Below, piece after piece: positions 46,788 through 47,980 of a stretch of DNA of 64,000 bases. Position 1 is the stretch's first letter; every line of letters starts with the position of its first letter. Under the pieces are notes generated by a model. The model worked only from the letters and a program-made list of their open reading frames with translations, did no database searches and was not told the DNA's origin. This DNA comes from Escherichia phage WPEC3, in sequence record PV611058. One strand, given 5' to 3'. Made by a program: the position numbers and the translations under genes.

Positions 46788-47945
46788 ATGTCAAGATCGA
46801 TTGCTGCTGCTGGACGATATAAGTTCGGTGAATGTGGATATGTAGTCGATGGTGCAATTCTCAACGATGGGACTAAACTCAAAAATGTTCGAATCTATCG
46901 TCAGAGAAGCCATAGATTATATGATTTACTTGATCCTGTAAGTAATGTAATTTATCGTAAAGTACAAATTACAACAAAGGATATACAAGGATATCAATTA
47001 AACTACAACAAAACTAATGACCAAATCCTAAGTGAAATAAGAAAGAACTCTTTTTTCGTAAGAGGATACTCAGATGCTAAACTTGAATCAGATCCTACTG
47101 GGTTTGTTTATAAGTTTCTTTTGCACAAAACAATTCTAGGTAGTTCACAAACACTATATAATATGTACACCCCTGAATGCGGGATTATAGATAGAGATAT
47201 AGACAACATCCTTATGTTCCCAACGTTCGTAGGTGATGATTTGGTAGGTGGTCGCCTATTCAACGCAGGTTCAGCCATTGATACAACTGGAATGCGTATT
47301 ACCGTTATACTTCCTGATGGAACAGAGTACTTCACTACTGAAATAATTGATGATGTTTTTAGTATTCCAGTTGATCCAATTACTCAATCCGGTAAAGGAA
47401 CCATCATACTCACTTCTGACATATATAATACCAAAACTATTGAATTTGATATACTAGAAAGCGGCGAAGATATTGACTTCGTTACTTCAGTACTTCTATC
47501 TCAGTTTGAGTACACGTCCGATGGTATGTACATGGCAACTGTACCAGCTACTGTGCATGAGCGTGGTGAGTATCTTGCTCTACAAGCATACAGTGGTGAT
47601 TTATTCCAAATTGGAGTAGACCTCATTGTAGATCCTAGCGGTAATATTACTGTGTACCAAACTGATGATGCTCCAATCTCATTGAGTATTATTGGTAAAA
47701 CCTTACACACCACTCCATATCACAACACGTATACTGAAAGTGATTGGGTAGATGATGGTGATTCTATGTACACACTGTCCATTCCTGCCAGTGAACATGG
47801 TAAAATCCTCCCACAAGTTCAAGTCTATGCTGAAGACAATCATGTTGTTCTAAGTGAAGTTGAACTCGATGCAGATGATAATGTTGTATTAAAAGTTGTT
47901 GAACCATTTGGCTGTACTGTAGTCATTGTTGGTTATAACGCATAA
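46788..47945 (+). CDS. Hypothetical protein (only plus-strand gene inside the minus block)
   Basis: 385-aa ORF with RBS ggagg; followed by hairpin terminator aagccactacattgtagtggctt + T-run. Confidence 0.55.
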   Translation: MSRSIAAAGRYKFGECGYVVDGAILNDGTKLKNVRIYRQRSHRLYDLLDPVSNVIYRKVQITTKDIQGYQLNYNKTNDQILSEIRKNSFFVRGYSDAKLESDPTGFVYKFLLHKTILGSSQTLYNMYTPECGIIDRDIDNILMFPTFVGDDLVGGRLFNAGSAIDTTGMRITVILPDGTEYFTTEIIDDVFSIPVDPITQSGKGTIILTSDIYNTKTIEFDILESGEDIDFVTSVLLSQFEYTSDGMYMATVPATVHERGEYLALQAYSGDLFQIGVDLIVDPSGNITVYQTDDAPISLSIIGKTLHTTPYHNTYTESDWVDDGDSMYTLSIPASEHGKILPQVQVYAEDNHVVLSEVELDADDNVVLKVVEPFGCTVVIVGYNA

Positions 47946-47949
47946 CAAA

Positions 47950-47980
47950 AAAGCCACTACATTGTAGTGGCTTTTCTTTT
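47950..47980. terminator. Bidirectional intrinsic terminator (gccactacattgtagtggc + T-run)
   Basis: Perfect inverted repeat between convergent genes 46788-47945 (+) and 47990-48805 (-). Confidence 0.55.

Follow-up and report, generated by a model that had tools for sequence, protein, structure and literature searches.

A lone backwards virion gene with a late-type promoter motif and a two-way terminator in the early-type gene block of an Asteriusvirus-like jumbo coliphage

Introduction

The late units of phage T4 are transcribed from gp55-dependent promoters of the consensus TATAAATA, and they lie mostly on the strand that does not carry the early genes. Among the Ig-domain decoration proteins of phage particles, Hoc of T4 has its capsid-binding domain, which attaches at hexamer centers, at the C-terminus.

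Comparable elements are on record for far larger phages, the RaK2-like jumbo myoviruses with genomes of about 350 kb, to which the genus Asteriusvirus belongs, namely for Pectobacterium phage CBB and Cronobacter phage GAP32 of the genus Mimasvirus. The authors of the CBB study noticed the word ATAAATA upstream of structural genes of their phage and likewise of GAP32, and they likened it to the T4 late promoter TATAAATA; homologues of gp33 or gp45 were not found by them (PMC5259590). In their tables, the CBB orthologue of the gene that we describe below is preceded by the putative late promoter Porf_496, which reads ATAAATACTTTATA, the divergent gene is assigned the RpoD-like promoter Porf_497, which shares the intergenic region with Porf_496, and the hairpin at the other end appears as the terminators Torf495 and Torf496, one per strand (PMC5259590 supplement). 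As this table already lists promoters and terminators, the architecture is on record for a relative; the gene, its late-type promoter, and its two-way terminator are known or tabulated in related phages, and our finding is in this respect an ordinary one.

The protein itself is also on record as a constituent of phage particles. In phAPEC6, for which 62 proteins were detected by mass spectrometry, the orthologue gp077 (42.88 kDa) was found in the virion (10 unique peptides, 37.8% coverage; PMC7247149), and CBB_496 was found in the CBB virion with 4 peptides and 17.5% coverage (PMC5259590). The cryo-EM study of phAPEC6 could not assign the decoration layer and the hexamer-centered fibers to genes, and in the literature on 121Q-like phages we found no study that assigns decoration proteins at near-atomic resolution. 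The gene is not taken up in the fEgEco12 paper, and the literature that we searched contained no Asteriusvirus transcriptome or promoter mapping. Here, we describe how the corresponding locus of Escherichia phage WPEC3 compares with these systems.

Results

A solitary plus-strand gene in a locus that is shared by three genera

The window, by which we mean the whole analyzed stretch of 64,000 nucleotides (sequence record PV611058), comes from an Asteriusvirus-like jumbo coliphage. It is 99.1–99.5% identical over 46–49 kb to WPEC5, Ecwhy_1, fEgEco12, vB_Ec-M-J, EC.P1, and BF17, with WPEC5/fEgEco12 representing its own sub-lineage, and about 78% identical to 121Q, PBECO4, and phAPEC6 of the genus Asteriusvirus. 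The features of the locus are compiled in Table 1.

Table 1. Features of the plus-strand virion gene, its surroundings, and two further motif-preceded genes of the window
Feature	Position	Strand	Remarks
Motif-preceded virion gene, gp035c orthologue	26970-28457	-	site reads TATAAATA, the exact T4 consensus
Motif-preceded virion gene, gp037c orthologue	29329-29712	-	ATAAATA ahead of start
Divergent neighbor, 194 aa, phrog_16175	46087..46671	-	'putative endonuclease' in the fEgEco12 annotation
Second, weaker sigma-70-like promoter	46699..46727	-	TTGACT-17-TATACT; nearer the divergent gene
Late-type promoter core (putative)	46749..46757	+	AATAAATAC; TAAATA core 46751-46756; last A 31 nt before ATG
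Perfect sigma-70 promoter	46767..46794	-	TTGACA-16-TATAAT, TGG before TATAAT; identical in 121Q
Ribosome-binding site	46778..46784	+	GGAGGGG, read from sequence; 3 nt before ATG
CDS, virion structural protein	46788..47945	+	ATG start, 385 aa, 42.8 kDa, pI 4.5
N-terminal module, ~120-125 aa	46788..47162	+	best-conserved region of the protein
Three tandem Ig-like beta-sandwich domains	47193..47942	+	~aa 136-225, 230-305, 310-385
Bidirectional intrinsic terminator	47949..47975	.	AAAAGCCACTAC-ATT-GTAGTGGCTTTT; 12-bp perfect stem, 3-nt loop
Convergent virion gene, 271 aa, acidic, phrog_14991	47990..48805	-	orthologues phAPEC6 gp078c, CBB_494

An earlier note on this DNA had described a 385-aa ORF, given as extending to 47980, as the only gene on the plus strand from 15.6 to 64 kb. 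The ORF is confirmed, and the WPEC5 annotation and our own ORF map agree that it is the sole substantial plus-strand gene in this range; the end coordinate, however, takes in the terminator, as the ORF stops at 47945. In the WPEC5 annotation (99.5% identical), all other CDS matching approximately 14–64 kb of the window are on the minus strand, except for three plus-strand calls of 38–43 aa. A greedy ORF map leaves on the plus strand only remnants of 45–71 aa and a single ORF of 158 aa, which we discarded as an artefactual shadow opposite an annotated minus-strand gene. The GC skew is +0.03 inside the gene and −0.12 in either flank, and GGAG or GGGAG is kept upstream of the ATG in all aligned orthologues. 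The gene itself, its solitary orientation, and the terminator that it shares with its convergent neighbor are real and not due to chance.

The closest described counterparts, phAPEC6 gp077 and 121Q gp155, are 76% identical over the full length, agree in length to within one residue, and share the locus, the orientation, the upstream motif, and the terminator, and there is no functional difference to report between them and the window protein. CBB_496 and GAP32 gp475 are likewise backwards virion genes; each has an ATAAATAC motif, lies next to a sigma-70 promoter that points the other way, and is followed by a two-way terminator. They differ in that their strongest leftward promoter lies elsewhere in the spacer, where it does not overlap the start codon, and in a tRNA methyltransferase gene that separates the orthologue from the convergent virion gene; this inserted gene is the sole difference of the locus in GAP32, CBB, and Yersinia phage fHe-Yen9-04 (genus Eneladusvirus), whose orthologues are about 40% identical. 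The position of the gene, backwards between the phrog_16175 gene and a second virion gene, is thus that of the family locus, with the same orientation and neighbors in 121Q, fEgEco12, G17, phAPEC6, GAP32, CBB, and fHe-Yen9-04, and the divergent phrog_16175 gene adjoins the orthologue also in the latter three phages.

A virion protein with a predicted tandem array of Ig-like domains

The 385-aa protein matches phrog_10468 ('virion structural protein') with E = 1.3e-157 over positions 1–384 of 384, and its membership in this family is evident from full-length homology across 16 clusters with 99–31% identity and approximately 100% coverage, with 121Q gp155, phAPEC6 gp077, GAP32 gp475, and CBB_496 as orthologues. 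By tblastn, 61 phage records match the protein, and in a large protein database as well as in the phage records, full-length homologues are confined to RaK2-like jumbo phages. The 121Q protein is annotated as 'virion structural protein; Ig-domain', and the counterparts in WPEC5 and fEgEco12, which are 99% identical, as 'structural protein' or 'hypothetical'. The virion labels from mass spectrometry belong to orthologues that are 76% (phAPEC6) and 40% (CBB) identical, and, judged by these orthologues, the gene product is expected to be a virion protein.

An AlphaFold2 model that was based on 15 homologues (mean pLDDT 83.6, and about 90 over the Ig-like domains) predicts an N-terminal domain of approximately residues 17–125, followed by three beta-sandwich domains. 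With Foldseek, the Ig-like part matched tandem bacterial Ig-like adhesins, filamin, and S-layer Ig domains, and in a viral library it matched paralogous proteins of the same phage group that are labeled 'possible surface protein' or contain Ig domains. Owing to the flexible links between the four domains, the TM-scores of the whole model are low, and we therefore take only the Ig-like nature from these comparisons. A Pfam scan of the protein gave no family even at E <= 1, and a PDB sequence search gave nothing meaningful; some homologues have weak Pfam matches to CarboxypepD_reg and Big_6.

The N-terminal module is without a solved structural relative, and HMMs of this module and of the full protein detected no paralogues in the window. 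In the homologues, it is always N-terminal, it occurs on proteins of 124–1859 aa (96 clusters at E <= 1e-10), and it recurs ahead of Big_2, Invasin, or HYDIN-type Ig arrays. The C-terminal domains are more variable than the module. We propose that the module is most likely a virion-docking domain, and the most economical reading of the protein is a constant docking module that bears a variable, exposed Ig-like array.

An invariant late-type motif that is otherwise avoided

The 116-bp divergent spacer upstream of the gene has almost fully diverged between genera, except for the core AATAAATAC, the ribosome-binding site, and the TTGAC boxes on the opposite strand. At −31 to −38 relative to the ATG, the core does not vary between the window, 121Q, phAPEC6, GAP32, CBB, and fHe-Yen9-04, and it is the element published as Porf_496 in CBB. 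Its motif AATAAATA, unchanged in these six loci, matches the T4 consensus TATAAATA at seven of eight positions, and if the geometry of T4 late promoters applies, transcription is predicted to start near 46762.

In the window as a whole, the corresponding words are strongly avoided. ATAAATA occurs 9 times where 41.6 ± 6.8 are expected, which makes it the most depleted word among the 1024 7-mers whose expected counts sufficed for a test, followed by CTAAATA, TAAATAA, and TAAATAC, and for TAAATA 45 occurrences stand against 123 ± 11 expected. The single ATAAATA on the plus strand of the entire window is the one at our gene. Four of the ATAAATA sites are intergenic and lie 19–45 nt ahead of a start codon, and three of these four precede orthologues of phAPEC6 virion proteins. 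In the range of 15.6–64 kb, three of the four virion genes with mass spectrometric support carry ATAAATA no more than 45 nt from their start, compared with one of the remaining genes, about 129 in number (Fisher p = 4e-5). The nine TAAATA words that stand in promoter position on the plus strand all precede virion-detected families, namely our gene and eight RCC1-like paralogues. This association between motif and virion genes was tested at the level of the window, together with the published CBB table. The motif does not accompany every virion gene: in the window, the 400 nt ahead of the convergent virion gene contain no xTAAATA, and in four other loci TAAATA is absent from the 200 nt ahead of this gene, and presence in the virion alone therefore does not imply a motif-type promoter.

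A gp55-family late sigma factor exists in the lineage. It is CBB_244, which has distant matches to cyanophage gp55 and a 75.6% identical orthologue in WPEC5, encoded outside the region that corresponds to the window. As gp33 and gp45 homologues have not been reported, the activation mechanism may differ from that of T4.

The earlier note had suggested that the gene is differently timed, for example late, and had taken the opposite orientation as a frequent marker of such timing. Late timing is supported indirectly, by the virion orthologues, the conserved and published motif, its avoidance elsewhere, the presence of the sigma factor, and the context. The orientation goes along with a late-type gene at this locus, but the gp035c and gp037c orthologues, which are motif-preceded as well, are co-oriented with the early-type genes, and the opposite orientation is therefore incidental and not diagnostic.

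Near-consensus sigma-70 promoters on the minus strand only

Sigma-70 promoters that match in at least 11/12 positions are found 28 times on the minus strand and 0 times on the plus strand of the window (2.3 ± 1.5 expected), and 27 of the 28 fall within 18.9–59.3 kb; that the block around the gene is of the early type is supported. The perfect promoter in the divergent spacer is arranged back to back with the late-type element, and its −35 hexamer overlaps codons 1–3 of the plus-strand gene. In the second, weaker promoter, the GTCAAG/TTGAC box is kept across genera, and each of the orthologous spacers examined contains at least one minus-strand promoter that matches in 11–12 of 12 positions.

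A hairpin shared by two convergent genes

The hairpin behind the gene begins 3 nt past the stop codon and takes up 27 of the 44 nt between the stop codons of the convergent genes. Its stem has an 8-bp G+C-rich core. On the plus strand, the hairpin is followed by TTTTCTTTT (47972–47980), and on the minus strand, the A-run at 47947–47952 reads as U6; with the perfect stem, TTTTCTTTT after it, and A6 before it, the element has the form of a canonical intrinsic terminator in both directions. Calculated folding energies are −16.2 kcal/mol for the plus-strand RNA and −20.2 kcal/mol for the minus-strand RNA (z = −5.7 and −6.7), and none of 200 shuffled sequences equaled them. A G+C-rich hairpin with a U-tract on each strand, placed between convergent genes, is what characterizes a bidirectional Rho-independent terminator, and the view that a perfect hairpin terminator is common to both genes, already expressed in the earlier note, is borne out by the sequence and the folding energies.

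GAP32, CBB, and fHe-Yen9-04 have an equivalent hairpin past the stop codon with a different stem sequence. The position and the shape are conserved and the stem sequence is not (GCCACTAC versus GGCACTC), with A- and T-runs on both sides in either case. The G17 annotation places a terminator on the opposite strand.

Discussion

Our data suggest that the virion gene is a self-contained, monocistronic late-type unit that lies backwards in an early-type block and ends at a two-way terminator, and we consider this joint reading to be likely. In the scheme that we propose, leftward transcripts coming from the right would stop at the hairpin early in infection, so that no antisense transcription would pass through the gene. 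Leftward transcription would then restart at one or two strong sigma-70 promoters of the divergent intergenic region, and the phrog_16175 gene would be the first gene of the restarted unit. Situated between the stop and the restart of leftward transcription, the gene would thus not be crossed by antisense transcripts, an insulation that is inferred, as is the surface location of the product. Late in infection, host RNA polymerase equipped with the phage gp55-like sigma factor would initiate rightward at AATAAATAC, near the start site predicted above, and an mRNA of about 1.2 kb would end at the hairpin. The N-terminal module of approximately 120 aa would dock on the particle, and the three Ig-like domains would project from it as a weak adhesin or decoration.

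The same spacer also permits a different view of how the gene is transcribed, namely from TTTACC-18-TATAAT (46736–46765) by the host sigma-70 polymerase, either early or during the whole infection, with TAAATA acting as an upstream or extended element. This plus-strand sequence scores 10/12 and overlaps the late-type motif, and with TATAAT only 3 nt past TAAATA, recognition by the host sigma factor is conceivable; TAAATA-N3-TATAAT moreover recurs here, in CBB, and in RCC1-like cassettes (fHe-Yen9-04 has TACAAT there), and the reported lack of gp33 and gp45 homologues would also suit a host promoter. However, the −35-like hexamer is not even conserved in 121Q, GAP32 carries GAAATA where TATAAT would be, and the gp035c and gp037c orthologues are without a good TATAAT. 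The avoidance centers on TAAATA words, a gp55-family sigma factor is present, and all 28 high-scoring sigma-70 promoters of the window are on the minus strand, with none on the plus strand. We therefore regard sigma-70 transcription of the gene as improbable and prefer the late-type promoter. Far less probable still is a recent insertion, the other possibility raised in the earlier note, in which a foreign cassette (a moron) with its own promoter and terminator would have landed backwards in the early block. A lone plus-strand gene with its own promoter-like element and terminator certainly has the classic look of a moron, but the same place, the same orientation, and the same divergent neighbor are seen in three genera at 38–76% protein identity, and homologues occur solely in the RaK2-like phage lineage. 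The distribution is not patchy, as 60 of 60 full-length records from at least three genera carry the gene. Nor is the composition odd: the GC content is 0.370 (window 0.349), GC3 is 0.254 (neighbors 0.23–0.28), and the codon usage is nearer to that of the pooled minus-strand genes than is the case for 93% of those genes themselves, all of which is typical of the block. The homology search and the comparison of composition with the neighbors thus both spoke against a recent insertion, and as the arrangement is conserved in three genera and the composition matches, this explanation was rejected. The arrangement is old and vertically inherited.

With regard to the protein, it has to be considered that the product could be an internal, injected, or assembly-associated virion component, or an accessory of the tail tube or tail sheath, in which the Ig-like domains would be structural and not adhesive. 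Mass spectrometry places the protein in the particle and nothing more, a paralogue that shares the N-terminal module is labeled 'major tail protein' in CBB and RaK2, and the product of the neighboring virion gene resembles an acidic internal protein. However, the tail label is probably just the result of an Ig-domain match, and variable C-terminal domains with Ig arrays that are swapped behind a constant module fit an exposed, fast-evolving part of the particle. In addition, where phage particles carry tandem Ig-like arrays, these are typically exposed at the surface (Fraser et al. 2006, as cited in PMC5259590). A location other than the surface therefore appears rather unlikely to us, and the protein, as modeled, is probably a surface decoration or adhesin. 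To go one step further and regard the N-terminal module as an uncharacterized docking adaptor, which would be combined with interchangeable Ig-like arrays in RaK2-like jumbo phages and their uncultured relatives, is a tentative idea that we do not expect to hold. If it were true, the product would be one of the 'hair' or hexamer-center fibers on phAPEC6 and CBB particles, and these phages would have a modular, Hoc-like adhesin system.

The resemblance to T4 late units lies in a putative A/T-rich −10-type element, which would have no −35 element, upstream of virion genes, in the encoded gp55-family sigma factor, and in the placement of the late-type unit opposite an early-type block. In contrast to T4, the consensus here is xTAAATA (AATAAATA at our gene), the CBB authors found homologues of neither gp33 nor gp45 (PMC5259590), and the other late-type units of the block are co-oriented with the early genes. 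The model of the protein is similar to Hoc and other Ig-domain decoration proteins in its size of about 40 kDa, its four predicted domains, and its tandem Ig-like folds, and like Hoc, the protein has the appearance of a non-essential virion component that plausibly contributes to surface adherence. Unlike in Hoc, the conserved putative anchor is N-terminal, and the Pfam and PDB sequence searches with the 385-aa protein revealed no homology to Hoc.

Beyond annotation, the significance of the locus is slight. It confirms that virion genes of these 350-kb phages are scattered as autonomous late-type cassettes, each consisting of promoter, gene, and terminator, in early-type regions and in either orientation. 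For new jumbo-phage genomes, a simple rule can be derived: where TAAATA is otherwise avoided in the genome, an xTAAATA approximately 25–45 nt ahead of a start codon flags such late-type cassettes. The 385-aa protein is furthermore a reasonable candidate for the unassigned surface fibers or decorations of 121Q-like virions, which bears on adherence to host or mucus in phage-therapy candidates.

Outside the locus, a separate observation was made in an ORF-free gap of the window at approximately 40450–40890 (read on the minus strand), which is 98–99% identical to 121Q, with flanks of about 78% identity. About four copies of this element per genome are present in 60 RaK2-like phage records, and nucleotide identity is about 70% even across genera. 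An Rfam search gave no match even at E <= 1, and there was no similarity to the PA5oct region with ncRNA001 and ncRNA002. An alignment of eight copies yields a consensus fold with 77 pairs, of which 36 show compensatory changes; paired cells make up 95% of the total, versus 82% in shuffled alignments (0 of 500 reached the observed value) and 34–46% when the partners are slid. The element would be an unclassified structured RNA of about 400 nt, which the alignment makes probable, and we consider this candidate to be more interesting than the plus-strand gene. The element closes with a terminator-like hairpin.

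Early-type and putative late-type promoters

The leftward genes form an early-type block that is densely supplied with sigma-70 promoters: between 18955 and 59303, the minus strand carries 27 that score at least 11/12, ten of them perfect, at a mean spacing of ~1.5 kb, and one further promoter with a score of at least 11/12 lies outside this range at 9710. On the plus strand, no sigma-70 promoter reaches 11/12, with ~2 expected by chance. The −35 hexamer of a perfect leftward promoter (see the table) is made up by codons 1–3 (ATG TCA AGA) of the plus-strand gene, which encodes a predicted virion protein, and the early leftward and the putative late-type rightward promoter therefore stand back to back; only a few nucleotides separate their predicted starts. 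This overlap of the hexamer with the coding sequence is shared by phage 121Q, whereas it is absent from Mimasvirus and Eneladusvirus.

TAAATA, the core of the putative T4-like late promoter, was observed 45 times in the whole window with 123 expected, and ATAAATA (9 observed versus ~42–50 expected) is the most depleted 7-mer of the window. The motif is shunned genome-wide, which fits a functional promoter core. An ATAAATA is found 32–45 nt before the start of each of two virion-protein genes, the orthologues of phAPEC6 gp035c and gp037c, which lie within the early-type block and in the same orientation as the block; the site of the gp035c orthologue, TATAAATA, is an exact match to the T4 consensus.

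The product of the convergent gene, which faces the plus-strand gene across a two-way terminator, has orthologues that were also found in virions (phAPEC6 gp078c and CBB_494). Upstream of this gene in the window, no xTAAATA occurs within 400 nt, and at four other loci no TAAATA was present within 200 nt upstream of its orthologue. A sigma-70 match of 11/12, with its −35 hexamer at 48588, is internal to the gene.

Coordinates of the features in the window
Feature	Position	Strand	Basis
RCC1-repeat ('chromosome condensation regulator', ATS1) paralogues, ~12, 260–450 aa	107-15580	plus	array
Virion-protein gene, phAPEC6 gp035c orthologue	26970-28457	minus	gp035c detected by mass spectrometry
Virion-protein gene, phAPEC6 gp037c orthologue	29329-29712	minus	gp037c detected by mass spectrometry
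ORF-free element, ~440 nt	40450-40890	minus (as read)	sequence conservation and consensus fold
Sigma-70-family 'RNA polymerase sigma factor' gene	~41000-42000	minus	orthologue of 121Q gp167
−35 hexamer TTGACA of perfect leftward sigma-70 promoter	46789-46794	minus	sequence match
Convergent gene, acidic protein, 271 aa, pI 4.8	47990-48805	minus	orthologues phAPEC6 gp078c, CBB_494
tRNA genes, n = 6	53521-58477	minus	Rfam tRNA, 50–68 bits

Other genes of the window

At least eight of the RCC1-repeat paralogues, whose phAPEC6 counterparts were detected in virions, are separate cassettes, in which a terminator hairpin (GCCAGTACTC...GTACTGGC, then a T-run) is followed by ATTAAATATAGTATAAT ~25 nt before the ATG, and then by AAAGGAGG. 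The early-type block also embeds the six tRNA genes, and several HNH endonuclease genes are annotated in the matching region of WPEC5. The 121Q gp167 orthologue lies in the same block, ~5 kb from the plus-strand gene; it is a different gene from that for the gp55-like late sigma factor, whose locus is elsewhere in the genome.

A candidate structured RNA

The ORF-free element is probably an unclassified structured RNA of ~400 nt. Its identity to 121Q is 98–99%, whereas that of its flanks is only ~78%; ~4 copies per genome occur in 60 RaK2-like jumbo-phage records, and across genera the copies keep ~70% nucleotide identity. The consensus fold of eight copies comprises 77 pairs, 36 of which show compensatory changes, and 95% of its cells are paired, compared to 82% in shuffles and 34–46% with the partners slid. 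The sequence matches no Rfam family at thresholds up to E ≤ 1, nor does it resemble the PA5oct region with ncRNA001 and ncRNA002. The element ends in a terminator-like hairpin, and the sigma-70-family gene is located directly upstream of it.
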